Positions 11,566-55,277 of a stretch of DNA of 64,000 nt are shown in pieces. Position 1 is the stretch's first letter; the number at the start of each line of letters is the position of its first letter. This stretch comes from Oscillospiraceae bacterium (lineage in GTDB: Bacteria; Bacillota; Clostridia; Oscillospirales; CAG-272). The notes beneath the pieces are model-generated. The model saw only the letters and a program-made list of their open reading frames with translations, was not told the origin of the DNA and ran no database searches. A program made the translations under genes and the position numbers. The DNA lies in NCBI GenBank assembly GCA_015065295.1, contig SVQN01000005.1:2133-66132 (forward strand), read 5' to 3'.

Positions 11566-11595
11566 CTATATCTTCTTTCAAACAAAATATCGTTT

Positions 11596-13837: not shown

Positions 13838-13853
13838 TGTTTCACGTGAAACA
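13838..13853. promoter_or_regulatory. parS site (ParB binding), perfect palindrome
   Basis: TGTTTCACGTGAAACA matches the Firmicutes parS consensus TGTTNCACGTGAAACA. It is embedded in the 24-bp palindrome AAAATGTTTCACGTGAAACATTTT. Confidence 0.9.
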
Positions 13854-13857
13854 TTTT

Positions 13858-16601: not shown

Positions 16602-16630
16602 ATTATATCACAAAACGGCGCATTTGTCAA
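16602..16630 (-). promoter_or_regulatory. dnaA promoter (sigma-A type)
   Basis: Minus strand TTGACA-aatgcgccgttttgTGa-TATAAT, 17-nt spacer, extended -10. Confidence 0.6.
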
Positions 16631-16644
16631 GGAATATGGAGAAA

Positions 16645-17128: not shown

Positions 17129-17179
17129 CTTTTCAGGCATTTTGCTGTTCCATAAAATAAAGAAAATTTCCGAAACCTA

Positions 17180-17564: not shown

Positions 17565-18059
17565 ATGAAATTCTACGCAATTACCGAAAATCACCTGTAC
17601 CGCAAGGCGTATAAAAACGGAAAGCGTTCGTCCCCCCACAGCATCTCTGTCTATGTGCTGCGCGACCGGCACGCCGCTCTCCTCAAAAAACAGAATCCCG
17701 AGAAGAAAACCATCAACCGCATCGGGATCTCAGCCTCAAAAAAAATCGGAGGTGCTGTACAGCGCAACCGCGCAAAACGGGTCATCCGCGAAGCCTACCG
17801 CCAGATAGACAAAGAAACCGGTATACGCACAGGCTATCTCATCGTGATCGTCCCCCGTACCGAATGTACAGTCCTGAAAATGCAGGATGTAAAACGCGAC
17901 CTGCTCTACGCCCTTGCCAAAACCGACCTGCTTGTCAAGTCCGACAAACCGGAGGACAAGCCGCCGAAAACCGGACCGGCTGCCCCCGCACCCAATACCA
18001 CCGACACACCTGACGTTCCGAAGGTACCGGAGACGGATTCCCATGATTCCGATGCGTGA
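17565..18059 (+). CDS. rnpA: ribonuclease P protein component
   Basis: RIGISASKKIGGAVQRNRAKRVIREAYR is the RnpA signature. Has a Pro-rich C-terminal extension. Confidence 0.9.
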   Translation: MKFYAITENHLYRKAYKNGKRSSPHSISVYVLRDRHAALLKKQNPEKKTINRIGISASKKIGGAVQRNRAKRVIREAYRQIDKETGIRTGYLIVIVPRTECTVLKMQDVKRDLLYALAKTDLLVKSDKPEDKPPKTGPAAPAPNTTDTPDVPKVPETDSHDSDA

Positions 18060-18573: not shown

Positions 18574-18654
18574 GTCTGGGTCAGTTGAAATCGTTTGTGA
18601 ACCCGTTACCCTATTGTCCGTAAAATCTGCACAAACTTTGTTTTATAACAGTTT

Positions 18655-18716
18655 GAAAAGGTTTTTGGGAGGGTGCGGGAACCCTTTTTCCTCAAAAAAG
18701 GGTTCCCGCGAAAAAA
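18655..18716 (+). repeat. U-family hairpin element U4
   Basis: gaaaaggtttttgggagggtgCGGGAACCCTTTTTcctcAAAAAAGGGTTCCCGcgaaaaaa. Confidence 0.7.
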
Positions 18717-25953: not shown

Positions 25954-25957
25954 GGGA

Positions 25958-26443
25958 AGCCCCTTCGGGGCTAAAGGAAGAAAAAAGTACCGTTCCGGTA
26001 CTTTTTTCAATTTTTATGTCCTGCGCGGACGGCGCATAAAGGGGCTCAGACGCCGCCCCTTTATGAATTGCCGGCTTGGAAATCGTTCGGGGGACTCGCC
26101 CTTGAGGGCTCAGACAGACAGCGGTTTGCACTCAGCAGATCGCACGGAAGAACAGAGATTTGATTCACTGAAAGGTGGAACTGACAATACAGTTTTTCCT
26201 CACGGCTGTTTCTACTGAACAAACAATTTGGACAGATTTGCACCCAACTTTGTCCCTTCCTAAAAATCTGAATGCGGGCAAACCGCTGTCTGTCCGAGGC
26301 CTCAAGGCCGAGTCCCCCGAACGTCAAGCCAGGAATTCACAAAGGGGCGGCGACTGAGCCCCTTTGTGCGCCGTCCCGCGTAGGGACATAAAATCTGAAA
26401 AATGTCCGAAGGACATTTTTCTACCTTCCACGCCGAAGGCGTG
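25958..26443 (+). repeat. L-family multi-hairpin element L2
   Basis: Collinear with L1 over its full length. Begins 5 nt after the mnmE stop. Confidence 0.85.
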
Positions 26444-26465
26444 TTCCCATTTTGCAATCCCCCTA

Positions 26466-26494
26466 TTGACAAAATTCATATCCTGTGATATAAT
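26466..26494 (+). promoter_or_regulatory. promoter of the HMGL-like synthase gene
   Basis: TTGACA-aaattcatatcctgTGa-TATAAT, 17-nt spacer. Confidence 0.55.
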
Positions 26495-28091: not shown

Positions 28092-28367
28092 TTATTCAAA
28101 TAAATCGGAATGGGTACCGGTGCGGGAGAGAAAAAGAATCAGATCGTTTCCGTCAATACGGTAGATCAGGAGCCAGTCAGGTTCGATGTGACATTCCATA
28201 AAACCGGCATAATTGCCGACGAGTTCGTGAACACGATATTTTTGTTCAAGTTTTTCTCCGGCGGCGATCCGATCGACGACACGATTCAGCTTTTCAAGAT
28301 TGCATCCGCGTTTGGCAAGAAGTTTTAAGTCTTTCTTGAAGCGGTTGGAAAGAACAACGTCAAGCAT
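28092..28367 (-). CDS. yafQ: type II toxin, YafQ/RelE family mRNA interferase
   Basis: 91 aa. FKKDLKLLAKRG...L..G..L....R.H.L.G....ECHIEPDWLLIY...TGTHSDLF is the family pattern. Overlaps the antitoxin by 8 nt. Confidence 0.85.
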   Translation of the reverse strand: MLDVVLSNRFKKDLKLLAKRGCNLEKLNRVVDRIAAGEKLEQKYRVHELVGNYAGFMECHIEPDWLLIYRIDGNDLILFLSRTGTHSDLFE

Positions 28368-28641
28368 CGTCCAGAACCTCGTCCATTGCTTCTTTGAAAG
28401 AGGAGTAATGCTTATAATTTTCCGGATGCTTCTTCATTTCTTTATATTCGTCCAGCGCGGCTCTGGTTTCTGCGTTCGGAACATCCCGGCGAATTTCAAA
28501 CGGAATGCGCTGTTCCCGTACAGCCTGCTTTAGAAACAGGGTGACAGCGGTTGTAAGATCGATCCCGAAATCCGCGAACAATTCCTGTGCAGAGCGTTTC
28601 AGTTCGGCATCCAGACTGATATTCGTGCTGACTTTTGCCAT
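28360..28641 (-). CDS. dinJ: type II antitoxin, DinJ/RelB family
   Basis: MAKVSTNISLDAELKRSAQELFADFGIDLTTAVTLFLKQAVREQRIPFEI is a ribbon-helix-helix DinJ-type N-terminus. Confidence 0.85.
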   Translation of the reverse strand: MAKVSTNISLDAELKRSAQELFADFGIDLTTAVTLFLKQAVREQRIPFEIRRDVPNAETRAALDEYKEMKKHPENYKHYSSFKEAMDEVLDDA

Positions 28642-31983: not shown

Positions 31984-32437
31984 CTGTTATAACAATAAAT
32001 GAGTAAATATAAAATCTGCCGAACGATAAGCCAAACTTTATCTTCGCACCCAACGTTGTCATTCCGAAGGCGATGCTTTCTGAAAATTAAAGCTGCACGT
32101 CCTACCTGAGGAATCTTCGCACGCCACTGTGTCAGCCGTAGGAAATGTCCGTGGTTATGTTAGGATTTCGGCTACCGAGGTTTACGAATGCCTATAACGA
32201 ACAGTCTACACAAATATAGAAACAGCGAATTGTACATTATGACAAAGTTGAACCTCTGAAGCTGAATAGGAGAACGTTACACGGACATTCCTTACGACTG
32301 ACACAGTGGCGTGCGAAGATTCCTCGGACAAGAACCTCAGCTGTGATTTTAAGTGATAAGTCCTCGGAATGACAACGTGAAGCCGAAAACGAAAGAATTC
32401 TGTCTATTTTTCGGATTTGCTCATTTACAGTTATAAT
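31984..32437. repeat. ~450-bp long-hairpin element P
   Basis: Arms ctgttataacaataaatgag...gtcattccgaagg...cttcgcacgccactgtgtcagccgtaggaaatgtccgtg pair with cacggacattccttacgactgacacagtggcgtgcgaag...cctcggaatgac...ctcatttacagttataa. Confidence 0.65.
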
Positions 32438-32450
32438 ATATCCACTCCAT

Positions 32451-32510
32451 AAAGGTTTTTGGAAGGGGTTTGGGGAAACCTTTTTCCTTAAAAAAGGTTT
32501 CCCCAAGAAA
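32451..32510 (+). repeat. U-family hairpin element U8
   Basis: aaaggtttttggaaggggttTGGGGAAACCTTTTTccttAAAAAAGGTTTCCCCAagaaa. Confidence 0.75.
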
Positions 32511-34830: not shown

Positions 34831-34968
34831 GTAGGGACACGGCGTGCCGTGTCCGCCAAACAAATTGGAAAAACAAAATTTGATCGGATTTTTATCGGAA
34901 ACAAACATTTTTTGACAAAATATTGTTTGTCTGAATTGGTCTGCGGACACGGCACGCCGTGTCCCTAC
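34831..34968. repeat. H-family REPIN-like doublet H3
   Basis: GTAGGGACACGGCGTGCCGTGTCCG (34831-34855) and CGGACACGGCACGCCGTGTCCCTAC (34944-34968). The ends are identical to H1. Confidence 0.8.
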
Positions 34969-35422: not shown

Positions 35423-35512
35423 CGCAAAGGGAGAGATTCGAACTCTCGGTCGGTTATTAGCCGAACACACGATTTCCAGTCGTGCGCCTTAGACCAGCTC
35501 AGCCACCTTTGC
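35423..35512 (-). tRNA. tRNA-Ser (anticodon GGA)
   Basis: Minus strand GCAAAGGTGGCTGAGCTGGTCTAAGGCGCACGACTGGAAATCGTG-long variable arm-GAGAGTTCGAATCTCTCCCTTTGCG. 7-bp acceptor stem, TTCGAAT T-loop, CTGGAAA anticodon loop, no encoded CCA. Confidence 0.9.
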
Positions 35513-35678: not shown

Positions 35679-37169
35679 TTAACCGTTTGCCTGAATCTTT
35701 TCTACGGCTTTCTGGAGCATCTTGGTGATGACCTTGGAGTTGGTTGCCCAGTAGGAAGCGTAGTTGCTGTTCTTTGCGGGCATCAGCGTACGGAGGACGA
35801 ACCACGGATTGCCGATGGATTCGTTGTAAAGCTGTTCGAAGTTGATGAGTGCACTGTCCTGAATAAGGTCCATCATTTCCGCGGTCTGTTCGTCGCGGGA
35901 GTAACGGTTCTTCAGCGCAACGTCAAAGTATGCCGGAGTAACGGTGCGGTAGCTCTGTGCGCCGAGTGCTTCGAGAACTGCTGCGGACATTTCGGGATTC
36001 TTCGCGTCGATCGGCACGCACCAGAGAGACAGCGCGTCCTGTACGCGGGTACCGTATTTGCCCTGTGCTTCGTCGAGCATCGGGTACGGTAGAACGCCGA
36101 AGTCGTCTTCCATTTCCGCAAAGGTGGATGCGATGTTTTCCATTGCTGCCGTTACGAGAAGGGCACGGCCTTCCACGAAGATTTCACGTTCGGTGTAACC
36201 GCTCAGATGCGGACGGCAGCCCGGGTTGTTCCAGAACAGGTTGTAGACCTTTTCAACGATGGTCGTCATGCGTTCTTCATCCACATCGAGGAACGGCAGG
36301 CCGTTTTCGTCACGGGAAATCATCGAAACCTGACAGCCCTGAAGGAAGGAGTCAGCGTCGTTGATACAGGAAGTAATCAGACCGTAGTTGTCGGCAGGAG
36401 ATGCCGTACCGTCCCCGTCGGTGTCGATGTACGCAACGGAGGAGAGATTGTAGACATAGTCGATCGTCCAGCGGTTTTCCTTGACAACGTCGTACAGATT
36501 TTCAAGCTCATAGTCGGTCGCGAGCTTCTGGTTGAACGCAAAGACGAACATGGCGGACGTCATGGTCTTCGCGATGTTGCCGGTTACAAAGTACAGCTTA
36601 TTGGCAATTTCCAGTTCCTCAACGGCGGATGCGTTCCACCACGGCTGATCGAGATCGAGATGCGGCAGCGGCAGCACGTCGAGCAGCAGACCTTCCAGGG
36701 ACAGCGCCGGGATACGTGCGGACCAGCCCGCGATAATATCATACGCACCGTCCGCCGCCATAATAGAAGCGCGGAGCGAAGCAATGGCGTTGTTGTAGGA
36801 TTCCCAGCCTTCCGCGCGGATCGGGTTGAGCTGAATGTTGAGACGTTCCGATACCATCGCGTTGCGTTCGTAAACCGCATCATTGACGGGTTCGCCGGTC
36901 ATTTCTTCCACACCGATTTCCAGATACGCCTGATCGTCGCCGCGGGAGTGAATCGTCACGGTTTCCCCGTTGAAGTCCAGTTCGGGAAGGGTGTCCGGAA
37001 TATTTTCACGGGAAATTTCCGTTTCCTCGGGAACCGTTTCTTCCGAAACCTGTTCGCCGGAGACGGCGGGCGTTGCGTCCGGTGAAGCGGTGTCCTCGGT
37101 TTCCGCGCAGGACACAATCGCCGGCGCAAGCATCAGCAGAGCAAGGAGAAGGGACAGATGCTTCTTCAT
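35679..37169 (-). CDS. ABC-transporter extracellular solute-binding lipoprotein (family 1), paralogue A
   Basis: Start moved to MKKHLSLLLALLMLAPAIVSCAE (lipobox, AGGAGG RBS). About 500 aa, SBP-like. Closely similar to 37422-38912. Confidence 0.85.
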   Translation of the reverse strand: MKKHLSLLLALLMLAPAIVSCAETEDTASPDATPAVSGEQVSEETVPEETEISRENIPDTLPELDFNGETVTIHSRGDDQAYLEIGVEEMTGEPVNDAVYERNAMVSERLNIQLNPIRAEGWESYNNAIASLRASIMAADGAYDIIAGWSARIPALSLEGLLLDVLPLPHLDLDQPWWNASAVEELEIANKLYFVTGNIAKTMTSAMFVFAFNQKLATDYELENLYDVVKENRWTIDYVYNLSSVAYIDTDGDGTASPADNYGLITSCINDADSFLQGCQVSMISRDENGLPFLDVDEERMTTIVEKVYNLFWNNPGCRPHLSGYTEREIFVEGRALLVTAAMENIASTFAEMEDDFGVLPYPMLDEAQGKYGTRVQDALSLWCVPIDAKNPEMSAAVLEALGAQSYRTVTPAYFDVALKNRYSRDEQTAEMMDLIQDSALINFEQLYNESIGNPWFVLRTLMPAKNSNYASYWATNSKVITKMLQKAVEKIQANG

Positions 37170-37289
37170 GGGTATACCTCCTAAAAAATGATATATGGAT
37201 TTATTTATATTCAACAATTTATGAAGTGCATTTATGGATTATGCCTAAAAAAACAAAACGGAAATATAGTATTTTTGATATATGTATAA

Positions 37290-37421: not shown

Positions 37422-38912
37422 TTAACCGTTTGCCTGAATCTTTTCGACGGCTTTTTCGAGCATCTTGGTGATGACCTTGGAGTTGGTAGCCCAGTAGGAA
37501 GCGAAATTGCTGTTCTTCTGCGGCATCAGCGTGCGGAGAACGAACCACGGATTGCCGATGGATTCGTTGTAGAGCGATTCAAAATTGATCAGTACGCTCC
37601 GTTCGATGAGGTCCATCATTTCCGCCGTCTGTACGTCGCGGGAATACCGGTTCTTCAGCGCTACGTCGAAATAGGCCGGAGTAACGGTACGGTAACTCTG
37701 TGCGGCGAGGGCTTCCAGAACCGCGGAGGTCATTTCGGGATTTTTCGAGTCGATCGGGATGCACCAGAGAGAAAGCGCGTCCTGTACGCGGGTACCGTAT
37801 TCCGTCTGCGCGTCGTTCAGCAGCGGGTACGGAAGAATCCCGTAGTCGCTTTCCATTTCGGCAAGGCTGGAGACAACCCCGCTGATACGGGTGGTAGAGA
37901 GGAGTGCGCGGTCTTCGGAGAACGGCTTCAGGTCGGTGCCGTCGCCGGTGATGGCGTAGCATCCGGGATTGTTCCACATCAGATTATAGACCTTTTCAAC
38001 GATGGTGGTGAACCGCTCGGTGTCAACGTCCAGAACCGGAAGCCCTGCTTCATCGCGGGAAATCATCGAAACGCGGAAGCCCTGCATATAGCCGTCCGCG
38101 TCGTTGACGGAGGAGCTGGTCAGACCGTAGAGGTCGGCGGTTCCCATCTGACCGTCGCCGTCGAGGTCCACATAGACATTGGTTGTCAGCTCGTTGATAT
38201 AGTCGATGGTCCAGCGGTGTTCGTTGACAACGTCGTACAGGTTTTCCACGTCAAAATCGTCGGCGACTTTCTGGTTGAAGACGTAGATGCACATCGCGGA
38301 CAGCATGGTTTTTGCGATATTGCCCGTTACGAAGTACAGATGACCGGCAATCTGCAGCTCGTCCACCGCGGACTGGTTCCACCACGGCTGTTCGAGATTG
38401 AGATGCGGCATTTCGTTCAGGTCGAGCAGAAGCCCTTCCAGGGACAGCGACGGAATTCTTGCCGACCATCCGGCAATGGCGTCATACGCACCGTCGGCGG
38501 ACATGATCGACGCGCGGAGAGAGGCAATGGCGTTGTTGTACGCGTCCCACTTTTCGCCGGCGAACCCTACGATTTTTACGTTCAGGCGTTCGGCGACCAT
38601 TTCGTTTCGTTCATAGACCGCGTCGTTGACAACTTCCCCGGTCATTTCTTCAACGCTGACTTCATAGATCGATTCGTCGTCGCCGCGGGAGTGAATGGTC
38701 ACGGTTTCGCCGCCGAAATCGAGCTCGGGGAGGGTGTCCGGATAATTTTCACGGGAAATTTCCGTTTCCTCGGGGACGGTTTCTTCGGCCGCCGGTTCCG
38801 CCGACACGGTCGGATCGGATGCGGGAGCCGCAGGGTCTTCCGTTTCCGCACAGGACACGGCCGCCGGTGCGAGCATCAGAAGCGCAAGGAGCAGGGACAG
38901 ATGCTTTTTCAT
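37422..38912 (-). CDS. ABC-transporter extracellular solute-binding lipoprotein, paralogue B
   Basis: Start moved to MKKHLSLLLALLMLAPAAVSCAE. Collinear with paralogue A, with the same C-terminus ..KVITKML(Q/E)KAVEKIQANG. Confidence 0.85.
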   Translation of the reverse strand: MKKHLSLLLALLMLAPAAVSCAETEDPAAPASDPTVSAEPAAEETVPEETEISRENYPDTLPELDFGGETVTIHSRGDDESIYEVSVEEMTGEVVNDAVYERNEMVAERLNVKIVGFAGEKWDAYNNAIASLRASIMSADGAYDAIAGWSARIPSLSLEGLLLDLNEMPHLNLEQPWWNQSAVDELQIAGHLYFVTGNIAKTMLSAMCIYVFNQKVADDFDVENLYDVVNEHRWTIDYINELTTNVYVDLDGDGQMGTADLYGLTSSSVNDADGYMQGFRVSMISRDEAGLPVLDVDTERFTTIVEKVYNLMWNNPGCYAITGDGTDLKPFSEDRALLSTTRISGVVSSLAEMESDYGILPYPLLNDAQTEYGTRVQDALSLWCIPIDSKNPEMTSAVLEALAAQSYRTVTPAYFDVALKNRYSRDVQTAEMMDLIERSVLINFESLYNESIGNPWFVLRTLMPQKNSNFASYWATNSKVITKMLEKAVEKIQANG

Positions 38913-39001
38913 GTGAATACCTCCTGTATAATGATATGTATATTTATAAAATATGCCCAAATTAATGAAATAATACGATCAAACTTGTAAAATATACATA
39001 A

Positions 39002-39085: not shown

Positions 39086-39142
39086 TTTTCTTGGGGGAAC
39101 CTTTTGAGGAAAGGTTCCCCCAAACCCCTTCCAAACCTTTTT
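39086..39142 (-). repeat. U-family hairpin element U9 (left end of composite U-M-U)
   Basis: ttttcttGGGGGAACCTTTTgaggAAAGGTTCCCCCaaaccccttccaaaccttttt. Confidence 0.75.
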
Positions 39143-39454
39143 GGTCTGCTATCAAATATTGGATGTGCGGATTTTGCGTTGGAGGGGGATTTTCATGGGT
39201 CTGTGCGTAGCCATATAGTTGATCCCATCCGCTGACATGATGTTGGTTTGAAATTCTATGAAAATCGTTCTGGGGAAGTCAGGGACCGCGACAAGGCGCG
39301 CGCCTTGCCACCCTGACTTCCCCAGAACGATTTTCGTGGAAATTAAAACCAGCCCCATGTCAACGGGCCGAACACTCTTAAGCCGAACTCCACGGTATAT
39401 TTCAAAAATCCCCCTCCCCATCATATCAGCCAAACAAACCGGCTACCACCGTCT
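39143..39454. repeat. M-family long palindromic element M2
   Basis: Near-complete hairpin centred on gtcagggaccgcgacaaggcgcgcgccttgccaccctgac. Arms gaaaatcgttctggggaagtcagg / cctgacttccccagaacgattttc. Confidence 0.7.
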
Positions 39455-39513
39455 AAAAAGGTTTTGGAAGGGGTTTGGGGAAACCTTTTCCTCAAAAAGG
39501 TTTCCCCAAGAAA
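39455..39513 (+). repeat. U-family hairpin element U10 (right end of composite)
   Basis: aaaaaggttttggaaggggttTGGGGAAACCTTTTcctcAAAAAGGTTTCCCCAagaaa. Confidence 0.75.
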
Positions 39514-42129: not shown

Positions 42130-42188
42130 TTTCTTGGGGAAACCTTTTTGAGGAAAAGGTTTCCCCAAACCCCTTCCAAAACCTTTTT
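42130..42188 (-). repeat. U-family hairpin element U11 (left end of composite)
   Basis: tttcttGGGGAAACCTTTTTgaggAAAAGGTTTCCCCaaaccccttccaaaaccttttt. Confidence 0.75.
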
Positions 42189-42653
42189 AGACTGTGGTAG
42201 CCATTTGGTTACTGCAGATTTTTTGTTTTTGGGGGTGGAAGAGATAAGGCGCGTTCGTGCAGCTGACAGGGGGAACTGTCTCCAATACATACGAATATGG
42301 TGGAGCGAGCTCGCAGGGGCCACCGAGACCCTGCTCGCCGTAGCCGTGGAGTACGTTTTGTGATCTTGAAAGGGGTTTGAATTCAGCTACATGGCGAGTC
42401 TGACATATAGGAATCCTATATGGCGGGATTACATCAAAGATTTCCCTTATGGCGAGTCTGAATTGACGGTTTTCTCCACGGCGTGGGAAGTCAGGGTCTT
42501 GGCGGAGCCTGACTTCCCCAGAACGATTTTGAAGGAATTTCAAATCAACGAAATGTCAGCGGATTGGGATATCCAAAATGGCTACGCACAGACCCAAGAA
42601 AATCCCCCTCAAAAAACAAAAAATCTGCACAGTCAAAATCACTGTAGCAGACC
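42189..42653. repeat. M-family related composite element M3
   Basis: Shares gggaagtcagggtcttggcggagcctgacttccccagaacgatttt and tttgaattcagctacat blocks with M1 and M2. Confidence 0.6.
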
Positions 42654-42712
42654 AAAAAGGTTTTGGAAGGGGTTTGGGGGAACCTTTTCCTCAAAAAGGT
42701 TCCCCCAAGAAA
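42654..42712 (+). repeat. U-family hairpin element U12 (right end of composite)
   Basis: aaaaaggttttggaaggggtttGGGGGAACCTTTTcctcAAAAAGGTTCCCCCaagaaa. Confidence 0.75.
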
Positions 42713-46267: not shown

Positions 46268-47161
46268 TCAATAATCGTCAAAAATTCCGGCACCGGCGAG
46301 TTTTTTCAGAAGTTCTTCCAGGTCTTCGTTGTCACGGTATTCAAGCTGGAACATCTTTTTGTTCTTCGCCGCGCTGATCTTGCATCGGCGGCCGGTGAAA
46401 TTTGTGAAGCGGGTTTCCAGAGAATGGATATAATCCACCTGTACGCCGACCTCTTCGGCTTCCGTTTCCTGCTGTTCCTGCCCGTAGAGCTTGTTCGCCG
46501 CCTTGACCGCCGCTTCCACATCGCGGACGGAAAGGTTCCGGTTGACGCAGCGTTCCGCAAGGGGAACCATCTGGGATTTGTCCCGTAAACCGAGAAGTGC
46601 ACGGCCGTGACCGGCGGTGAGAAGGCCTTCGACGAGCATCCGGACGATTTCGTCGGGCAGATCGAGAAGGCGGAGCGAATTGGCAATCGCACTGCGGGAC
46701 TTGCCGATCTGGAGGGAGATTTCCTCCTGACTGAGCCGGTACTCTTTCATGAGCATACTGTACGCGCGGGCCTCTTCGTAAGGATTGAGGTCTTCGCGCT
46801 GAAGGTTTTCGATCAGCGCAAATTTAGCCGCCGCGAGATCGTCCGCTTCGAGAACGATCACAGGAATTTCGCTGAGACCGGCGAGCTTGGAAGCACGGAA
46901 GCGACGCTCCCCGGCGATAATTTCGTAACGGTCGTCCACTTTACGGACGAGAATGGGTTGAAGGACGCCGTTGGCAGAGATGGAATCCGCGAGACCCGCG
47001 AGAGACTCGGAGTCGAACGTCCGTCTGGGCTGGTCGATCTTGGGGTCGATCTGCGAGATGGAAACGGAGAGCACGCCGTTTTTCGCTTCGCCGTCATTGT
47101 CGACGGCGTTATCGAGGAAGATCGCGTCGAGACCTCTGCCGAGGCCTTTGTTTTTTGCCAT
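46268..47161 (-). CDS. parB: chromosome partitioning protein ParB/Spo0J
   Basis: KGLGRGLDAIF, VLQPILVR and IIAGERRFRASKLAGL motifs. Confidence 0.96.
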   Translation of the reverse strand: MAKNKGLGRGLDAIFLDNAVDNDGEAKNGVLSVSISQIDPKIDQPRRTFDSESLAGLADSISANGVLQPILVRKVDDRYEIIAGERRFRASKLAGLSEIPVIVLEADDLAAAKFALIENLQREDLNPYEEARAYSMLMKEYRLSQEEISLQIGKSRSAIANSLRLLDLPDEIVRMLVEGLLTAGHGRALLGLRDKSQMVPLAERCVNRNLSVRDVEAAVKAANKLYGQEQQETEAEEVGVQVDYIHSLETRFTNFTGRRCKISAAKNKKMFQLEYRDNEDLEELLKKLAGAGIFDDY

Positions 47162-47202
47162 TTGCTGTAACTCCAGTATATGATTTTCTTTTGGTTTACA
47201 AA

Positions 47203-47718
47203 ATGTAGAATACCAAACTGTACGTTTGGATTAATTAGGAAGAAAAATGACCTAAAGGTCATTTTTCAATTTTATGTCCCTGCGCGGGACGGCGCACAAA
47301 GGGGCTCAGACGCCGCCCCTTTGTGAATTCCCGGCTAAACGTTCGTGGGACTCGGCCTTGAGGCCTCAGACATACAGCGGTTTGCCCGCATTCAGATTAT
47401 TAGGAAGAGACAAAGTACTGTGCAAATTTGTCCAAATCGTTCGTTCACTACAAACAGCCGTAAGGGATAATTGCAAATTTAGGTTCCACTTTTCAGCAAA
47501 ACAAAATCACTGTTCTTCCGTGCGATCTGCTGAGTGAACACCGCTGTCTGTTTGAGCCCTCAAGGGCGAGTCCCCCGAACGCTAAGCCGGGAATTCATAA
47601 AGGGGCGGCGTTTGAGCCCCTTTATGCGCCGTCCGCGTAGGACATTAATTCTGAAAACCGCTTCAGCGGTTTTCTTCCTTTCAAACGAACGGTTTGCACT
47701 TCCCACCCCGCTGTAAGC
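47203..47718 (-). repeat. L-family multi-hairpin element L3 (inverted relative to L1/2/4/5)
   Basis: Same arms; the core is in reverse-complement order. Fills the parA-parB gap, ending 5 nt from the parA stop. Confidence 0.85.
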
Positions 47719-47723
47719 AAACC

Positions 47724-48500
47724 TCAAACAACCCCGATCCGGGACAATACCTCCTCCGTGGCATCCGTATACGCGCGGCACGCCTTGGAGTACTTGTCGT
47801 GGTAGTTGATCGGCGTGCCGAACCCCGGTGCCTCCGAGAGCTTCACCGCCCGCGGAATCGTTGTGGAAAGCAGCTTGTCCGCGTAATATTTCTTGATTTC
47901 GTCAAGTACCTGTACCGACAGATTCAACCGTCCGTTGTACATCGTAATCAGAATTCCCAGAATCGACAGATCGTGATTGTACAGCTTCTTGACGTTCCGG
48001 ATCGTCAGCATCAGCTGCGTCAGCCCTTCCAGCGCGTAGTATTCGCACTGCATCGGGATAATGACCCCGTTCGATGCCGTCAGTGCATTGATCGTCAGCA
48101 TCGACAGCGACGGCGGACAGTCGATCATCACCAGATCGTACGCGTCCCCCAGCTTCACGATGAACTGCTTTAACTTTGCTTCACGGTTGTCGAGGTCAAC
48201 CAGCTCGAATTCTGCCCCCGCCAGACTGATCGTGGACGGAACGATCGACAGATTCTCGAATTCGGTCTTGATAATGCAGTCTTCCGGAGACGCATCGTCG
48301 ATAAGCGCATCATAGATGCTTTTCTTGATATTCTTTTTGGTAATGCCCACGCCGCTGGTGGAGTTGCCCTGCGGGTCTTCGTCGATGAGCAGGACACGCT
48401 GTCCCATCGCCGCCGCACAGCTCGCGATGTTCACGCAGGAGGTCGTTTTGCCGACTCCGCCCTTCTGATTGGCGAAGGAGATGACATAAGGTTTGGTCAT
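47724..48500 (-). CDS. soj: chromosome partitioning ATPase ParA/Soj
   Basis: ISFANQKGGVGKTTSCVNIA is the deviant Walker A. Also LLIDEDPQGN. Confidence 0.96.
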   Translation of the reverse strand: MTKPYVISFANQKGGVGKTTSCVNIASCAAAMGQRVLLIDEDPQGNSTSGVGITKKNIKKSIYDALIDDASPEDCIIKTEFENLSIVPSTISLAGAEFELVDLDNREAKLKQFIVKLGDAYDLVMIDCPPSLSMLTINALTASNGVIIPMQCEYYALEGLTQLMLTIRNVKKLYNHDLSILGILITMYNGRLNLSVQVLDEIKKYYADKLLSTTIPRAVKLSEAPGFGTPINYHDKYSKACRAYTDATEEVLSRIGVV

Positions 48501-48589: not shown

Positions 48590-48605
48590 TGTTTCACGTG
48601 AAACA
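48590..48605. promoter_or_regulatory. parS site, perfect palindrome
   Basis: TGTTTCACGTGAAACA with the same AAAA/TTTT flanks as the site at 13838. Confidence 0.9.
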
Positions 48606-48704: not shown

Positions 48705-49547
48705 CTATACCGCTTTCGGCAGAAGGATCGAGATCAGCGTCCCGCTTTCGGTTTCCTTCCGCGTGGATTCGACGGGGATCCCGCTTTTTTTGATGACATC
48801 CACCGCATGGTCGATCGAATTGTAGAAGATCCGGATGTCCTTGATAATCAGCTTATGACGCTGTTCGCTTTTCGGCGGCTTGCTGCGGATCTCCGCCGCG
48901 CGGGATTCCGCACATAACAGCGATTCAATGTATTCCTCCGCCGCCGCAACGTTCATTCCCCGCTCCGCGAAGATTTCAATCACGCGTATCCGTTCGGCTT
49001 CCTCCGATAACCGCAGGAGCGCACGCGCATGACGTTCCGTCAGACCGTTTTTGAGAATCCGTTCCCGTTCGTCCTTGGAAAACCGCAGCAGGCGGAGTTT
49101 GTTCGCAATGTACGATTGACTGACCGCCAGCCGCCGCGCACACTGCTCCTGCGTCATCCCGGATAAACCGATCAGGGAGCCGATGGCGGTCGCTTCCTCG
49201 AACATATTCAAATCCTCGCGGTGCAGATTCTCAATGATCGCAATGACCGCCGCGTCCACTTCGCTTGCCTCGATCGCAACGCACGGGACGGTATCCAGCC
49301 CCGCGATTTCCGCTGCACGGAGCCGCCGTTCCCCGGCGATGAGATGGAACACCGGAATGCAGTCGGTGGCCGGTTCTTTACGAACGAGCAGCGGCTCGAG
49401 GATGCCGTGTTCCTTGATGCTCGCGGCAAGCGCACGCAGACTTTCGTCGTAGGCGACTTGCCGGATGCGCCCGTCCGGGACGACGATGTCCTGCACGTCC
49501 ACATCGCGGATGACCTTCGTAATTTCTTTCAGCTTTCCCCAGAACAT
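48705..49547 (-). CDS. noc: ParB-like nucleoid occlusion protein Noc
   Basis: Start moved to MFWGKLKEITK (AGGAGG RBS). HLIAGERRLRAAEIAGL and ENLHREDLN. Position upstream of soj. The track ORF N-terminus reads into L4. Confidence 0.88.
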   Translation of the reverse strand: MFWGKLKEITKVIRDVDVQDIVVPDGRIRQVAYDESLRALAASIKEHGILEPLLVRKEPATDCIPVFHLIAGERRLRAAEIAGLDTVPCVAIEASEVDAAVIAIIENLHREDLNMFEEATAIGSLIGLSGMTQEQCARRLAVSQSYIANKLRLLRFSKDERERILKNGLTERHARALLRLSEEAERIRVIEIFAERGMNVAAAEEYIESLLCAESRAAEIRSKPPKSEQRHKLIIKDIRIFYNSIDHAVDVIKKSGIPVESTRKETESGTLISILLPKAV

Positions 49548-49580
49548 AGATTTTGTACCTCCTGTGATTTGGATGTATGT

Positions 49581-50116
49581 ATGGCTTACAGCGGTGGAGA
49601 ATACCAAACTGTACGTTTGGATTAATAGGAAGAAAACCGCTAAAGCGGTTTTCAATTTTATGTCCCTGCGCGGGACGGCGCACAAAGGGGCTCAAACGCC
49701 GCCCCTTTGTGAATTCCCGGCTTAGCGTTCGGGGGACTCGCCCTTAAGGGCTCAGACATACAGCGGTTTGCACTCAGCAGATCGCACGGAAGAACAGCAA
49801 TTTCGTTCAACCAAAGGTAGAATCTGAATTTTAAGTTTGCCTTCACGGCTGTTTGTAGTGAACTTACGATTTGGACAGATTTGCACAGTACTTAGTCCCT
49901 TCCTAAAAATCTGAATGCGGGCAAACCGCTGTCTGTCCGAGGCCTCAAGGCCGAGTCCCCCGAACGACTTTCAAAGCCAGCAATTCACAAAGGGGCGGCG
50001 TCTGAGCCCCTTTGTGCGCCGTCCGCGTAGGACATAAAATTCTGAAAACCGCTTTAGCGGTTTTCTTCCTTTCAATGCAAACGAACGGTTTGCACATCCC
50101 CCACCGCTGTAGGCAT
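49581..50116 (+). repeat. L-family multi-hairpin element L4 (longest copy)
   Basis: Extended outer arms ATGGCTTACAGCGGTGGAGAATACCAAACTGTACGTTTGGATTAATAGGAAGAAAA / inverted partner. Begins 34 nt upstream of the noc start codon. Confidence 0.85.
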
Positions 50117-50183
50117 ATTATACACCTCCGGAGGAAATAAACCTGTCTCAATCCGCTGTTTGATTTTTGAACCTCCTGTGGGA

Positions 50184-50258: not shown

Positions 50259-51032
50259 TCAGCCCAGCGGTTGTTTCGTGATTTCTGCGTATCTGCGGGG
50301 GAATTTTTCGGGAGTGTCGCCGTTTTTGCGGTAAAAGATCACACAGCGCGTGTCGCCCCCGGGAAGTTCGTAGTCGATTTTCGCTTCCTTTGTCAGTCCG
50401 AGAAGAGGTGCCGCCGCGTCGCCGTGCTGCATTTCTTCCTCCGCGTGCGACTTCAGTGCCGCGAAAACACCGCCCTTCTTTACCAGCGGCGCGCACAGTT
50501 CCATCAGAACCGGCAGATTCGCTACCGCGCGCGCGGTCACGAGGTCGAATTTTCCGCGATACGGTCCCTTCTTCGCCATCCCGAATTCTTCCGCACGTCC
50601 CGCAATCGCCGTAACATTCGTCAGTCCGACGTACTTCGCCGCCGCGTTGATGTGGGAAATTTTCTTCGCCGTGGAATCAATTCCGGTCAGACGGGTCTCC
50701 GGGGAAATTTTCGCAAGTCCCGCCGCCATCGGGAGAAGCGGGAATCCCGCACCTGTGCCGATGTCCGCCAGCGTCTTCGGAAGTCCGCAGGTGTCCGCGA
50801 TCAGTGCCAGCGGGATGAGCGAGTCAATCAGGTGCTTCCGGATGATTTCCGCCGGCTCCGTGATCGAGGTCAGGTTGAATTTTTTCGCGTCGTCGATGAG
50901 AGAATCCGCGATGAGGTACAGGCGGCGGACGGTTTCCGCGTCGGTCAGCTCGTCGTGAATGCTGCCGTAGTCTACATACCGGGTCTGTTCGTCGTACAGC
51001 GCGGCAAAGGTTTCGTAAGTGAGTTCAGACAT
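50259..51032 (-). CDS. rsmG: 16S rRNA (guanine527-N7)-methyltransferase RsmG
   Basis: Start moved to MSELTYETFAALY. LADIGTGAGFPLLPMA SAM motif, and ARAVA. Confidence 0.93.
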   Translation of the reverse strand: MSELTYETFAALYDEQTRYVDYGSIHDELTDAETVRRLYLIADSLIDDAKKFNLTSITEPAEIIRKHLIDSLIPLALIADTCGLPKTLADIGTGAGFPLLPMAAGLAKISPETRLTGIDSTAKKISHINAAAKYVGLTNVTAIAGRAEEFGMAKKGPYRGKFDLVTARAVANLPVLMELCAPLVKKGGVFAALKSHAEEEMQHGDAAAPLLGLTKEAKIDYELPGGDTRCVIFYRKNGDTPEKFPRRYAEITKQPLG

Positions 51033-51093
51033 GATGTCGTCCTTTCGTAATACGGTCGTTTCGGAAAAGTCTGCACTTTTCCACAGAATGTTT

Positions 51094-52311
51094 TTACTCC
51101 CAGTACAGGTCAAAATACATATTTTCGATGGTTTCCACAGGATGTGTTTTGCTGAAATCTTCGTCGGTGTCCGGTTCGATGACCGGCGTGTGCGCGAGGT
51201 CTTCGAGGAACTGCCCCAGCATCGCCGCCGAATCCGGTTTGGCGATCGCGGCAATGCAGTCCCGCATCGCCGACAGACGGACGTCCGAGGTGAGAAGCTG
51301 ATACAGGCATTCGTCGATCGGACAGGTGTCCGATGTTGCCAGCGCGCAGCCGTTGTTCAGGAGGAATTCCGCGTTGCGCTCTTCCTGTCCGGGAATCGGG
51401 TTGGCGATAATCATCGGCAGATGCTTCGCAAGGGCTTCGCTTGTCGTCAGTCCGCCCGGCTTGGTGATGATCGCGTCGGATGCGTCCATCATCTGCGGGA
51501 TCGTTTTGACGAATCCCGTGACGAGCATCGGATGGCGCGAGGTTTTTGCGATTCGGTCAATGTCCTCCTTCATGTCGGCGTTGTTGCCGCAGACGACGAT
51601 GAGCTGGAAATCCTGTTCCGTGTCGAGCGCGTCGATTTTCCGGACGTTTTCCGCCATGTTGCCGTAGCCCATCGACCCGCCCATCACGAGGAACGTGCGG
51701 AGGTTTTCGTCGATGCCGAGGAACCGGCGCGCCTCCTTCTGCGGCATGGTTTCGGAAAATTTCGGATTGATCGGTATGCCGAAGGAGAGAATCTGGTCGT
51801 CGGCGAACCCTTTGCGCCGTGCCTGCGGGAGAAGAAGACGGTCGGGAACGACGACGTAATCGTTCGCGGTGCAGTCCTCCCAGTAGGGATGGAACGTGAA
51901 GTCGGTGAGAATGCCGACGGTGCGGTTGGTGATGATCCGCTTTTTCTTCATGATGCCGAGCAGGATGCCCGCAAACGGATGGGTGAAGAGAATCGCGTCG
52001 TAATCGTCCGCGCGGATGTATTCGGCGAGTTCCTCCGCGCCCGCGCGTTTGATGAGGTTGGCGGGCGTGTATTCACGTTCGCTGGCACGCCGTTTTTCAG
52101 CAAGCTCGTAGCCGAATTTCCATGCAAATTTCGCTTTTTCTGTGACAAGGAGGTACCCTTCGGAAATGAGCTTGGCGAATTCGGGAGAGAAGTAGTCGAA
52201 GGTATCAAGGATTGTGCAGTCCGCGCCGCGGTTTTCCAGTTCGGTACGGATGGCGCGCGCGGTGGAATTATGTCCTTCGCCGGCGGTGACGGATAAAATG
52301 AGGAAATTCAT
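51094..52311 (-). CDS. GT28-family glycolipid glycosyltransferase (MGDG synthase / UgtP-like)
   Basis: MNFLILSVTAGEGHNSTARAI N-terminus, and ITKPGGLTTSEALA near the C-terminus. Confidence 0.85.
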   Translation of the reverse strand: MNFLILSVTAGEGHNSTARAIRTELENRGADCTILDTFDYFSPEFAKLISEGYLLVTEKAKFAWKFGYELAEKRRASEREYTPANLIKRAGAEELAEYIRADDYDAILFTHPFAGILLGIMKKKRIITNRTVGILTDFTFHPYWEDCTANDYVVVPDRLLLPQARRKGFADDQILSFGIPINPKFSETMPQKEARRFLGIDENLRTFLVMGGSMGYGNMAENVRKIDALDTEQDFQLIVVCGNNADMKEDIDRIAKTSRHPMLVTGFVKTIPQMMDASDAIITKPGGLTTSEALAKHLPMIIANPIPGQEERNAEFLLNNGCALATSDTCPIDECLYQLLTSDVRLSAMRDCIAAIAKPDSAAMLGQFLEDLAHTPVIEPDTDEDFSKTHPVETIENMYFDLYWE

Positions 52312-52981: not shown

Positions 52982-53040
52982 TTTCTTGGGGGAATCTTTT
53001 TTGTAAAAAAGATTCCCCCAAACCCCTTTCAAAAAACTTC
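52982..53040 (-). repeat. U-family hairpin element U13
   Basis: tttcttGGGGGAATCTTTTTTgtAAAAAAGATTCCCCCaaacccctttcaaaaaacttc. Confidence 0.7.
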
Positions 53041-53072
53041 AGTCTGGGAAAATGGATTTGGAATGTGCGGAT

Positions 53073-54053
53073 TTATTCTTCCCCGATGGTTTCGAGGATA
53101 TTTACAAATTCGGATAACGTTTCCGCGTGATTGAGACGTTCGCGGACGCGTGCGGCACCGCGCATTCCTTTGATGAAATAGGCCGCGCGGGAACGGGATT
53201 CGCGGACGCCGACGGGTTCGCCGTGTTCGCGGACAACCGCTTCGACGAGAGAAATCGCAAGAGCCTTGATTTCGTCCACAGTCGGCGGGACAAAATGTTC
53301 CGGATCGGACAGCTCGCGGAAAATCCACGGATTTCCCAGAGCGGCACGGCCGACGGCAACTTCCGTACAGCCGCAGGCAAGATAGCGTTCCGCGTCATTG
53401 AGAGTTTCGATGTCGCCGTTTCCGACGAGAATGACGGATTTTTCAAGTCCGCGCAGAGCTTCTGCGACGGATGCCGCATGAGACGGATCGGCGGAGGGCA
53501 TATACATCTGCTCACGGGTGCGGCAGTGGATCGTGATTTTGGATGCACCGGCACGCACCATCGCGGCGGCAAATTCCGCGCAGTTGATGTGACCGGAATC
53601 CCACCCGGCGCGGATCTTGACGGAGAGCGGCACACCGAACTTCGCGCAGACTTCCGCAGCGGCAGAGGTCACAGCGCAGGCAGTATCGGGTGTCCGCATA
53701 AGGGAGGAACCGTCGCCGGACGTCACGATTTTTTTGACGGGACAGCCCATATTGATGTCGATACCGGCAGGCGGCGCGGCATAAGAGCAGCCGGGATAGT
53801 CTCCGGAGAGGAGCTTCCGCGCGGCCTCGGCCATCATCGCAGGGTCGTGCCCAAACAACTGGAGGATGACGGGAGCTTCGCCCTCGCCGATTTTGGCAAG
53901 TACGGCGGTTTTCCGGTCGCCCATACACATAGCGACGGAGGAGATCATTTCGGACACGACGTAGTCGGCACCGAAGTCTGCGGCGATCTTCCGGAGGGGA
54001 AAATCGGTATACCCCGCCATCGGAGCGAGGGAGGAGGTGATTTTTTTCTTCAT
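53073..54053 (-). CDS. dusB: tRNA-dihydrouridine synthase
   Basis: LAPMAGYTDFPLR and INMGCPVKK catalytic Cys motif. Confidence 0.93.
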   Translation of the reverse strand: MKKKITSSLAPMAGYTDFPLRKIAADFGADYVVSEMISSVAMCMGDRKTAVLAKIGEGEAPVILQLFGHDPAMMAEAARKLLSGDYPGCSYAAPPAGIDINMGCPVKKIVTSGDGSSLMRTPDTACAVTSAAAEVCAKFGVPLSVKIRAGWDSGHINCAEFAAAMVRAGASKITIHCRTREQMYMPSADPSHAASVAEALRGLEKSVILVGNGDIETLNDAERYLACGCTEVAVGRAALGNPWIFRELSDPEHFVPPTVDEIKALAISLVEAVVREHGEPVGVRESRSRAAYFIKGMRGAARVRERLNHAETLSEFVNILETIGEE

Positions 54054-54075
54054 AGTGTTGATTATGATGTACGTT

Positions 54076-54584
54076 ATGGCTTACAGCGGTGGAGAATACC
54101 AAACTGTTCGTTTGCATTGAAAGGAAGAAAAATGACCGTTCCGGTCATTTTTCAATTTTATGTCCCTACGCGGGACGGCGCACAAAGGGGCTCAGACGCC
54201 GCCCCTTTGTGAATTCCTAGCTTGCCGTTCGGGGGACTCGGCCTTGAGGCCTCAGACATACAGCGGTTTGCACTCAGCAGACCGCACGGAAGAACAGAAA
54301 TACAGTTTTGCAAAAAGGTGGAACTTAAATTTACAGGTATCCCTCACGGCTGTTTGTAGTGAACGAACGCTTTGGACAGATTTGCACCCAACCTTGTCTC
54401 TTCCGAAGGGTCTGAATGCGGGCAAACCGCTGTCTGTCCGAGGCCTTAAGGCCGAGTCCCACTTCCGTCAAGCCAGAAATTCACAAAGGGGCGGCGACTG
54501 AGCCCCTTTGTGCGCCGTCCGCGTAGGACATAAAATTTTGAAAAACGCCTTCAGGCGTTTTTCTACCTTTTGCGGCGAAGCCGC
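54076..54584 (+). repeat. L-family multi-hairpin element L5
   Basis: Left end of the long type (as L4), right end of the short type (as L1). Fills the mreD-dusB gap. Confidence 0.85.
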
Positions 54585-54587
54585 GCT

Positions 54588-55277
54588 TCACTGAACTTTC
54601 GCATCACGCGACTTGTTAAACGGCCGCAGCGCAAAATACGCCGCCGCGTGCGGAATTACCGCAAACAGCAGGTTCGCCGCAAATTCCGGCAGAACAACGC
54701 CGATAACGGCCGTTGCCAACGAAATGTCCCCGACCGTCATGGCCAGCGTGGTGAACGTGAAAATCGCACGCACAGCGGACGATATCCCCGTGTACAGCGC
54801 GCGAACCGCCGCCGAATCACGGAAATAATAAATCGTCAGTAAGCCGCAGACATAGCCCGACGGCATATATAACAGCGGCAGCAGCGTCAGACGGGAACCG
54901 CCCAGCGATTCGATCACAAACGCGGCGATCAGCCCGACCACCGCGCCCCAGCGTTCCCGCTCGGTCATCGCTATGGCAATCACCAGCGGCAGAATCAGGT
55001 CGGGGACTGCCCCGAACGGTCGGAACCGCGTGAACAGCGTCGTCTGAATGAGGGAAAATACCACGATCAGAAGAGCGCAGACCGCCCCCTTCGCAATCGC
55101 TTCACCGTCCATGTTCAGCGCAAGCCGCCATTCGCGGAACCGGTCGGTCAGACTTTCGCTGCCGGGTTCGCGCGGAGACGCAGACGGTGCTTCCCTGTCC
55201 GCATTTTCCCGGGAACGGTCAGGGGTTCTGGGATTGTTGTTCATACGTTTTTGAGAAAACGTGGAGTTATTCCACAT
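54588..55277 (-). CDS. mreD: rod shape-determining protein MreD (start uncertain)
   Basis: Polytopic membrane C-terminal about 170 aa directly after mreC. The hydrophilic 55-aa N-terminal extension may not be translated; alternative starts at 55244 and 55112. Confidence 0.75.
   Translation of the reverse strand: MWNNSTFSQKRMNNNPRTPDRSRENADREAPSASPREPGSESLTDRFREWRLALNMDGEAIAKGAVCALLIVVFSLIQTTLFTRFRPFGAVPDLILPLVIAIAMTERERWGAVVGLIAAFVIESLGGSRLTLLPLLYMPSGYVCGLLTIYYFRDSAAVRALYTGISSAVRAIFTFTTLAMTVGDISLATAVIGVVLPEFAANLLFAVIPHAAAYFALRPFNKSRDAKVQ

Follow-up and report, generated by a model that had tools for sequence, protein, structure and literature searches.

What is the long palindromic sequence that recurs between the housekeeping genes around a clostridial replication origin, and what does it do to the genes that it separates? 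We examined this question in a stretch of 64,000 nucleotides (nt), hereafter the window, from the metagenome-assembled genome (MAG) of an Oscillospiraceae bacterium, in which one such sequence, flagged in a preliminary description, lies between gidB and noc. It is the fourth of five copies (c1-c5) of an element made of two hairpin-rich arms around a central core. With moderate confidence, we assign the element to a new family, unusually large and ordered, of composite palindromic repeats that lie between genes and are akin to bacterial interspersed mosaic elements (BIMEs), REPINs and miniature inverted-repeat transposable elements (MITEs). In this interpretation, members of the new family are gained, lost, inverted and recombined and would stop transcription in both directions.

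Five intergenic copies of an element with two head-to-head arms

Five copies of the element, four direct and one inverted (c3), were recovered by a repeat finder at the places where the preliminary description had put them, and a profile built from full copies matched the same five and no additional fragments in the window (Table 1). All five are intergenic and lie among housekeeping genes. Pairwise likeness among the copies is 85-94%, the right halves of these paralogous copies are 91-94% identical, and the five-way alignment has a mean column identity of 77%, flanks counted in. Within each copy, the inverted arms (100-104 nt) are 85-88% complementary, which gives the element the terminal inverted repeats of a MITE, and c4 in its entirety is predicted to fold into one giant hairpin (-325 kcal/mol, z = -23).

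All six reading frames are broken, differently in each copy, and no frame is conserved, as had been proposed before. The open reading frame (ORF) calls that public data place on some copies are spurious and lack any Pfam domain, and a protein-coding function was ruled out on these grounds. Covariance models from Rfam 15, at gathering as well as permissive thresholds, gave no match over any copy, the sole window match at the gathering threshold being a tRNA (35423-35512); nine related loci and the type 2 elements described below likewise had no Rfam 15 match. These searches of the window and relatives ruled out a known RNA family, in keeping with the initial failure to recognize one. A plasmid, phage or viral origin was also ruled out, as no DNA similar to the element was found in collections of plasmids, phages and viral contigs.

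The internal order of the element emerged from an alignment of 37 arms (A5), each oriented from the centre outwards, in which left and right arms proved to be the same string of modules. A full element, about 460-560 bp long across the family, therefore consists of two homologous arm units of about 200-240 nt, placed head-to-head around an asymmetric core. From the centre outwards, an arm begins with GCAAACCGCTGT, hairpin H2 (GGCC..GGCC, GCCC..GGGC or GGTC..GACC), GAGTCCCCCGAACG, an optional hairpin CCAGAGG..CCTCTGG, AAGCCGGGAATT and hairpin H3 (CAYAAAGGGG.. or CAYAAGAGGG.., sometimes with an inserted hairpin GGAGTTCAC..GTGAACTCC). After H3 it continues with GCGCC, hairpin H4 (GTCCC/GGGAC, CGCC/GGCG, GCCCC/GGGGC or TGCCC/GGGCA), ATAAAATTGAAAA, a terminator hairpin whose stem varies almost freely between arms, TTTTTCTTCC and, often, a further outer GC hairpin.

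This alignment also refines how the element is delimited. The core is non-palindromic and polar, as first described, and shorter than the 150 bp or so originally assigned to it: because arm homology enters it by about 40 nt (..CTYTTCTTCC..ATCTG..), its unique part is about 95 nt. The core blocks that had been singled out are present. TTTGGACAGATTTGCAC, part of a ATTTGGACAGATTTGCAC block, is exact in four copies and has one A for G in c3; CCTCACGGCTGTTTGTAGTGAAC occurs with a GTAG/CTAC alternative; and GGTGGAAC, found in c1, c2 and c5, is replaced by AGTGGAAC in c3 and by GGTAGAAT in c4. The bounds given earlier hold in their general extents, except that an outer module (GCTTACAGCGG..CAAAC-N5-GTTTG) prolongs the repeat past the terminator in c3, in c4 and at the left end of c5. 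The ends of the element are thus modular, not fixed, and its outer hairpins represent two distinct module types, not a duplication.

Three architectures were observed. In type 1, the form found in the window, both arms are complete; in type 2, the inner left arm is replaced by GACTGTCCTGCC..AAGTCCGGCGAAGCCGGCAGTTAAAGTAGGCTAACCGCGAAAAC (L094, L012, L015 and L041); and in the third, right halves stand alone (L026, L064/L037, L028 and L076:5287-5543). The right half, from CACGGCT through the terminator, is kept in all three. The occurrence of single units (half copies in L026, L064 and L076:5287-5543) alongside inverted doublets (the full elements) in extragenic space is the arrangement by which REP, REPIN and BIME repeats are recognized. 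Across 24 aligned sequences, 33 columns are invariant, including a 20-nt run, GAATGCGGGCAAACnGCTGT, with one variable position. Conservation is highest in the internal linkers and at the junction of core and arm, with 22 nt invariant in the 24 sequences, and the termini, that is, the terminator stems and outer hairpins, are the most variable parts.

The element is dispersed among gut and rumen Clostridia

Among 185,579 genomes, a 22-mer from the core matched two other species, represented by a faecal Eubacteriales MAG (L001) and a Clostridia MAG from water-buffalo caecum (L002). A first metagenome scan with a 22-mer from the left core yielded no matches, and a scan with an 18-mer yielded 62, nine of which were real by profile search. 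In addition, a protein search with a spurious ORF running through c5 led to nine more ORF calls on other copies, and further loci were obtained from their contigs. Copies adjoin sugar-metabolism genes (sugar-phosphate isomerase-like, arabinofuranosidase) in L001 and L075, lie between thiI and a nicotinate phosphoribosyltransferase gene in L002 and adjoin a ROK-family gene in L064; more were found on L086-L089. The species of the window has a further locus, L076, in which a full copy and a half copy occur within 17.7 kb, close to rpmF, yicC, gmk and priA; nine other contigs of that species have c2 conserved at its place. A recurrent neighbour gene (transposase, reverse transcriptase or nuclease) was considered and rejected, as the neighbours are ordinary housekeeping genes.

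Because copies occupy unrelated loci in other genomes and at a second locus of the same species, the element is dispersed, not origin-specific, and the expectation that it would be present outside the 64-kb region is borne out by copies in other MAG lineages. The lineage in which the family is found consists of uncultured Clostridia from gut and rumen.

Gain, loss and recombination at orthologous sites

Origin regions of sister species, found through ParA homologues, have the same gene order as the window. In the window species, the parA-parB spacer (about 560 nt), the gidB-noc spacer (about 710 nt) and the spacer upstream of dus (about 535 nt) are each filled by a copy. The corresponding spacers measure 80, 217 and 188 nt in L090 (ParA 88%), where there is no copy in 20.8 kb, and 84, 384 and 28 nt in L092 (ParA 89%), where only a fragment comprising H3, H4 and terminator lies downstream of noc; the 384-nt gidB-noc spacer of L092 carries a second repeat family and not this element. 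Orthologous sites are therefore empty for c3 and c5 in both sister species and for c4 in L090. Such presence and absence at orthologous sites, combined with copies at unrelated loci, is the hallmark of a mobile repeat, and filled and empty sites are too diverged for exact insertion junctions to be placed.

At the same sites, closer relatives carry different forms of the element. In L094 (ParA 97%; four-fold degenerate sites 64-76% identical), the parA-parB and gidB-noc sites are filled by type 2 elements. In L070 and L071, whose flanking genes are 97-99% identical to those of the window, the core of the parA-parB copy, including the H2 hairpins, is inverted relative to the window, L065 and L072; in addition, H3 on one side is of a different form, and 53 nt are inserted. 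The two orientations come from different samples, and the alleles differ by more than a simple flip. At the parA-parB site, genomes whose ParA proteins are 97-100% identical thus display three alleles: type 1 forward, type 1 with inverted core and 53-nt insertion, and type 2. Moreover, arms cluster neither by side nor by copy; the left arm of c5 and the right arm of c2, for instance, share 96% identity. Taken together, these comparisons show insertion and deletion between close species and frequent recombination between copies and between arms.

Two further loci bear on this history. The parA-parB spacer of L092 (L092:10760-10904) contains GTGCAAAGCGTTTGTTTGGTTCT, which resembles the left and right outer modules of c3 fused at their shared GTTTG and may be the footprint of an element's deletion. 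At L106:3555-4121, the sequence agrees fully with the window over the end of mnmE and through the first 169 nt of c2, and then passes into an inverted core, another right arm and another flank. Either the contig is a chimera assembled across the repeat, or inverted copies have undergone a rearrangement with each other; L106 was rejected as a second clean inversion because the right flank differs.

Predicted terminators and promoters at the ends of the element

Pattern scans predicted 4-6 terminator hairpins per region of about 1 kb around the copies, compared with 1.3-1.6 expected. The predictions sit at the ends of the element, on both strands in c2, c4 and c5, which agrees with the terminator-like modules first noted at both ends. 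Each module consists of a GC-rich hairpin between an A-run and a T-run and, by sequence pattern, qualifies as an intrinsic terminator.

The copies tend to lie where transcription units meet. Two sigma-70 promoters with 12/12 matches flank c1, both reading away from it. Copy c2 follows the stop codon of mnmE by 5 nt, and about 25 nt separate its other end from the 12/12 promoter of the next gene (TTGACA-17-TATAAT, 26466-26494); many other copies are likewise bordered by a stop codon and, at the opposite end, by a strong promoter. The remaining window copies divide genes from what lies upstream of them: c3 separates parA from parB, and c5 separates dus from an upstream gene that is 28 nt away in L092. 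At c4, the -10 element of the ancestral noc promoter directly abuts the copy, so transcripts from this promoter would begin inside c4; the noc -10 (TGNTATAAT) and the upstream ATTGAGACA..GTTTATT are conserved in L090 and L092, which do not carry the element at this site.

The gene-proximal ends of c3, c4 and c5 share a module, ..CAAACG(T/A)ACAGTTTGGTATTCT.. (the CAAACGTACAGTTTGGTATTCT module), with a TGNTATTCT box, and the left outer module of c4, read on the minus strand towards noc, contains the extended -10-like TGGTATTCT. Copies c1 and c2 lack the module with this box and are followed by independent promoters. From these sequences we infer that the gene-proximal module supplies a putative outward promoter. 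Where a copy has parted a gene from its promoter or operon, as with c3, c4 and c5, the insertion would then be tolerated because the end nearest the gene carries the outward TGGTATTCT.

These features suggest how the family may operate. The elements would be non-autonomous, recombining DNA that is gained and lost between transcription units and reshuffled through recombination between copies and between an element's own arms. Terminators at each end, facing outwards and inwards, would stop transcription arriving from both sides, and the element could thereby act as a bidirectional terminator or insulator.

Conservation of local hairpins

The preliminary description held that local hairpin folding is conserved, not the pairing of one arm with the other. 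In L001, L075, L086, L088 and L094, the left-arm H3 has the form CAYAAGAGG../..CCTCTTRTG and is accompanied by extra hairpins, such that this arm is mismatched to the right arm with its local hairpins intact, and half copies have no partner arm at all. Because the relatives with divergent left arms and the half copies keep their local folds, it is indeed the local hairpins that are conserved. Shuffling of the 37-arm alignment points the same way: 98.4% of cells in the H2, H3 and H4 stems are paired versus 92.3% in shuffles, and changes on both sides of a stem number 37 versus 11.4 in shuffles, a count matched in 0/500 shuffles; the covariation signal is gone when stem partners are slid. Both stem alternations reported at the outset, CATAAAGGGG/CCCCTTTATG versus CACAAAGGGG/CCCCTTTGTG and GCCC..GGGC versus GGCC..GGCC, proved real in the five-copy and 37-arm alignments. 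These paired changes are subject to two caveats: since arms and copies exchange sequence, a single conversion can bring in both halves of a 'compensatory' change, and template switching at palindromes in DNA can give paired changes without selection on RNA.

Across 11 full copies, RNAalifold returned a covariation term of +1.09, which amounts to no net support, and arm-to-arm pairs are broken in the copies with divergent left arms. A pairwise covariation scan over all columns of the 24 sequences was swamped by relatedness.

Alternative explanations

Several observations weigh against the interpretation of the family as gained and lost palindromic repeats. No transposase, recombinase or RAYT-like gene was found in the window or beside other copies, and the ends of c4 (TATGGC..GCCATA; flanks ..GTATG / TTATA..) show no direct repeat. 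That the modules end or start transcription is a prediction. Right halves that occupy shared sites in two species are 81-84% identical versus 64-76% at flanking four-fold sites, which suggests constraint or homogenization, not neutral decay. Conserved linkers and a conserved junction combined with variable termini are the reverse of a typical MITE or insertion sequence (IS) end, and look more like a functional RNA or a single strand recognized by a protein. Finally, invariant linkers and junction, compensated stems and half units that retain the same block are atypical for a passive repeat, and keep an RNA-based explanation serious.

In that explanation, which we consider doubtful but the foremost rival, the right half, which starts about 15 nt upstream of CACGGCT and runs for ~280-330 nt up to and including the right terminator, is a new, multi-copy class of structured non-coding RNA. 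Each full element would then comprise a head-to-head pair of related RNA genes, or of one such gene and a degenerate copy, with transcription directed outwards from the core. Lone right halves in several genomes keep all conserved blocks and have a terminator at the end, and a half copy folds at z = -4.1. Type 2 elements exchange the inner left arm for unrelated structured sequence and leave the right half unchanged, the linkers between covarying hairpins are invariant, and conservation is higher than at four-fold sites. A TATAAT-like box lies about 75 nt upstream of CACGGCT in L064 and L037, but no sigma-70 promoter is conserved inside copies or upstream of half copies, where candidate -10 boxes differ from copy to copy, and an internal promoter of this kind was accordingly rejected; the half copy L076:5287-5543 starts 25 nt from a divergent start codon. 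A by-eye search of the core for sigma-54, sigma-B or ECF-type spacing revealed nothing consistent.

The strand of the presumed RNA is ambiguous. G.U pairs in H3 fall on the outward-reading strand in both arms, but the cases share ancestry. Minimum free energies are equal on both strands, and for most right arms the complement is more stable. Loops on the outward strand read C(GAA)G seven times and C(TTC)G 0 times, but the same hairpins, read inwards, give cUUCGg, so that loop bias settles nothing about the strand. Strand assignment by folding energy or whole-arm G.U counts was abandoned as contradictory and dominated by non-native pairings. A candidate long-range helix in the right half, TTGGACA/TGTCCGA, has two compensated pairs and several G.U pairs, but also two A.C breaks, as many as the compensated pairs. 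Nor does the variable core show guide-like complementarity to the flanks, the longest matches (6-8 nt) being those expected from shuffled sequence.

A broader proposal, which we hold still more tentatively, is that the right half (CACGGCT...TTTGGACAGATTTGCAC...CTGAATGCGGGCAAACCGCTGT, H2, H3, H4 and terminator) is either a structured RNA of ~300 nt or a single-stranded DNA recognized by an unlinked enzyme, and that it functions and propagates as a self-duplicating unit of which the elements are head-to-head dimers.

We regard as improbable that the element is an invertible DNA switch, in which the inverted arms let the core flip and so alter transcription towards the neighbours (phase variation). 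Opposite core orientations do occur at parA-parB in the two groups of genomes described above, with flanks intact and in two independent assemblies; the arms show 85-88% complementarity across at least 100 nt; and the c3 core has weak promoter-like boxes in both directions. However, beyond the 53-nt insertion, the cores of the two alleles differ by about 15% and one arm hairpin is of another type. The core also lacks a conserved promoter, the end terminators would halt transcripts leaving it, no invertase gene lies nearby, and the second apparent inversion (L106), with its other right flank, may be a chimeric contig. Finally, a DNA signal of the origin region, for example an array of binding sites for DnaA, ParB, Noc or a condensin loader, is highly improbable, and its origin specificity largely refuted. 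All five window copies are found no more than 40 kb from dnaA, oriC, noc and parAB, with c1 immediately upstream of dnaA and c3 between parA and parB. However, copies in other genomes and at L076 sit at unrelated places, the element is missing from the corresponding origin regions of sister species, and no DnaA box or parS at or above threshold lies inside any copy, all DnaA boxes and both parS sites falling outside.

Gene content and other features of the window

Pfam scans of the genes identify the window as the chromosomal origin region (gyrAB, dnaN, oriC, dnaA, rnpA, mnmE, gidB, noc and parAB; Table 1). Seven DnaA boxes (motif TTATCCACA, at most one mismatch) cluster at 14210-14825 in the dnaA-dnaN spacer, which is likely oriC. 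The spacer upstream of dnaA is mostly filled by c1 and has no DnaA boxes; in many Firmicutes that spacer has boxes too. Perfect 16-bp parS sites (TGTTTCACGTGAAACA) lie at 13838-13853, at the upstream end of the dnaN ORF, and at 48590-48605, in the noc-parA spacer, where a site is also found in the sister species (L092:9896-9911).

Table 1. Positions of element copies, their modules and neighbouring genes in the window
Feature	Position	Strand	Remarks
c1, full element	16645-17128	+	between divergent dnaA and rpmH/rnpA promoters; profile match 16627-17158(+)
c1 left arm	left terminator 16661-16696; H4 16702-16720; H3 16720-16757; H2 16773-16796		
c1 core	16802-16974		
c1 right arm	H2 16981-17001; H3 17019-17056; H4 17057-17075; right terminator 17082-17110		
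c1 outer GAA-loop hairpin	about 17113-17128		
c2, full element	25958-26443	+	profile match 25917-26476(+)
c2 modules	left terminator 25974-26009; core 26118-26289; right terminator 26396-26425		
c3, full element	47203-47718	-	inserted between parA and parB; profile match 47185-47724(-)
c3 right arm	right terminator 47238-47268; H4 47274-47292; H3 47292-47329; H2 47347-47367		
c3 core and left arm	core 47374-47547; left H2 47553-47576; left H3 47592-47629; left terminator 47652-47680		
c4, flagged copy	49581-50116	+	between gidB and noc; profile match 49572-50113(+)
c4 left outer module	49581-49625	+	GGCTTACAGCGGTGGAGAATA-CCAAACTGTACGTTTGG-ATTAAT
c4 left terminator module	49626-49654	both, predicted	A-tract, CCGC/GCGG stem, T-tract
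c4 left-arm hairpins	49660-49754	+	H4 49660-49678; H3 49678-49715; H2 49731-49754
c4 core, polar	49760-49932	+	left inner junction 49760-49781
c4 core block GCACGGAAGAACAG	49784-49797		
c4 core block GGTAGAAT	49815-49823		
c4 core block CACGGCTGTTTGTAGTGAAC	49844-49863		
c4 core block TTTGGACAGATTTGCAC	49870-49886		
c4 core block CTGAATGCGGGCAAACCGCTGT	49911-49932		invariant
c4 right-arm hairpins	49939-50035	+	H2 49939-49959; H3 49982-50019; H4 50019-50035
c4 right terminator module	50043-50069	both, predicted	
c4 right outer module	50070-50116	+	GCAAACGAACGGTTTGC..CCACCGCTGTAGGC; inverted repeat of left outer module
Extended -10 of ancestral noc promoter	50117-50124	-	TGTATAAT; directly abuts c4 end
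c5, full element	54076-54584	+	between 229-aa gene and dus; profile match 54074-54591(+)
c5 modules	left terminator 54121-54154; core 54260-54433; right terminator 54539-54567		
gyrA	5666-8257		Pfam scan
gyrB	9424-11556		Pfam scan
dnaN	12532-13854		Pfam scan
dnaA	14979-16583		Pfam scan; exact protein sequence is NCBI MBE6709796.1
rnpA	17565-18059		Pfam scan
mnmE	24559-25953		Pfam scan
parB	46268-47161		Pfam scan
parA	47724-48500		Pfam scan
noc-like parB paralogue	48705-49547		Pfam scan
gidB	50259-51254		Pfam scan
dus	53073-54053		Pfam scan

A second, unrelated family of hairpin repeats (..GGGGGAACCTTTTTGAGGAAAAGGTTCCCCCAAACCCCTTCCAAAACCTTTTTGG..) is present in both orientations in the window, at 11595-11662, 18648-18713, 32444-32509, 39087-39148, 39433-39513, 42130-42239, 42603-42712 and 52985-53046. 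The pairs at 39087-39513 and 42130-42712 form inverted repeats flanking about 300-360 nt, and extra blocks are common to 11688-11805 and 39172-39289 and to 12073-12177 and 39311-39415, which suggests a second composite element. Outside the window, this family was seen beside the half copy of L026 and, in L092, in the 5' region of noc.

Other features of the window are separate from these repeats. A toxin-antitoxin pair of the RelB / ParE-YafQ type lies on the minus strand at 28092-28641, according to Pfam marks on identical genes of L097. Two tandem ORFs of 512 amino acids (35679-37217 and 37422-38960, minus strand, 1743 nt apart) share 73-87% DNA identity and adjoin the 90-nt tRNA (35423-35512); the one that was scanned, 35679-37217, has no Pfam match. 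A long hairpin at 34832-34968 scores far under the gathering thresholds of two microRNA precursor models from plants, one on each strand (E = 2.8e-5 and 7e-3), and is probably merely a strong inverted repeat at a gene end. A separate inverted repeat (32080-32153 / 32280-32353; 74-nt arms, 81% complementary, 126 nt apart) is not related to the element.

Discussion

Among described repeats, the element invites comparison with those of Proteobacteria, in which REP palindromes form clusters or inverted doublets (BIME, REPIN) and RIP (RIB) elements consist of two inverted REPs around a non-palindromic linker. Like these, the element is extragenic and lies between transcription units, places inverted palindromic units around an asymmetric centre, is mosaic and modular, keeps its stems through paired changes, occurs as coexisting single units and doublets, and is implicated in termination or mRNA-end effects. 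Unlike REPs, which are single palindromes of 20-40 nt, its unit is 200-240 nt long and contains 3-5 hairpins and a full intrinsic terminator. It also differs from REPs and BIMEs in lacking a GTAG-type head, in its Firmicutes/Clostridia host and in having a core and linkers that are more conserved than its stems. No gene for a RAYT (Y1 transposase) was seen in about 100 kb of the host species.

MITEs include the Correia elements of Neisseria, which have promoter and terminator activities, as well as ERIC, RUP and bcr1. The element resembles them in being small, non-coding and multi-copy, with terminal inverted repeats and insertion in either orientation; it is likewise present or absent between relatives, and could similarly supply terminators and outward promoters to its neighbours. 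In contrast to the inverted repeats of MITEs (10-40 nt), those of the element extend over about 200 nt, and its ends are its most variable parts. No target-site duplication could be defined for it and no parent IS was found, half elements keep an internal block and not a terminus, and conserved termini shared with an autonomous IS were absent from the window, the surroundings of other copies and the plasmid, phage and viral collections.

The BOX elements of pneumococci are modular (boxA-boxB(n)-boxC) and 100-300 nt long. The element shares with them its optional modules, variable module number, Firmicutes host, intergenic position and strong folding, but has no sequence relation to them, and BOX elements lack terminator modules at both ends and a long asymmetric core. 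Large bacterial RNAs listed in Rfam with no known function (ROOL, GOLLD, OLE, raiA and HEARO/omega RNA) resemble the element in their size of several hundred nt, their many hairpins and conserved single-stranded linkers, and their occurrence in Firmicutes and in gut or rumen metagenomes. The element differs from them in having no covariance-model match, in its five copies within 64 kb, in its quasi-palindromic form and in lacking an associated ORF or conserved promoter.

Interspersed palindromic repeats are, to our knowledge, well described in Proteobacteria and a few Firmicutes and hardly in uncultured gut Clostridia. The present family is unusually large and ordered, and offers what are predicted to be ready-made two-way terminators. 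Its insertions at sites thought untouchable (between parA and parB, at the noc promoter and upstream of dnaA), with host genes staying intact, make it a natural experiment in operon splitting and re-promotion. In MAG assembly it probably gives rise to contig breaks and chimeras, and it may drive local inversions. Should the right half prove to be a transcribed structured RNA, it would constitute a multi-copy RNA class new to Rfam; and should it be an RNA or single-stranded DNA that propagates as a unit, the family would be no passive repeat and would represent a new system, mobile or regulatory, in gut Clostridia.

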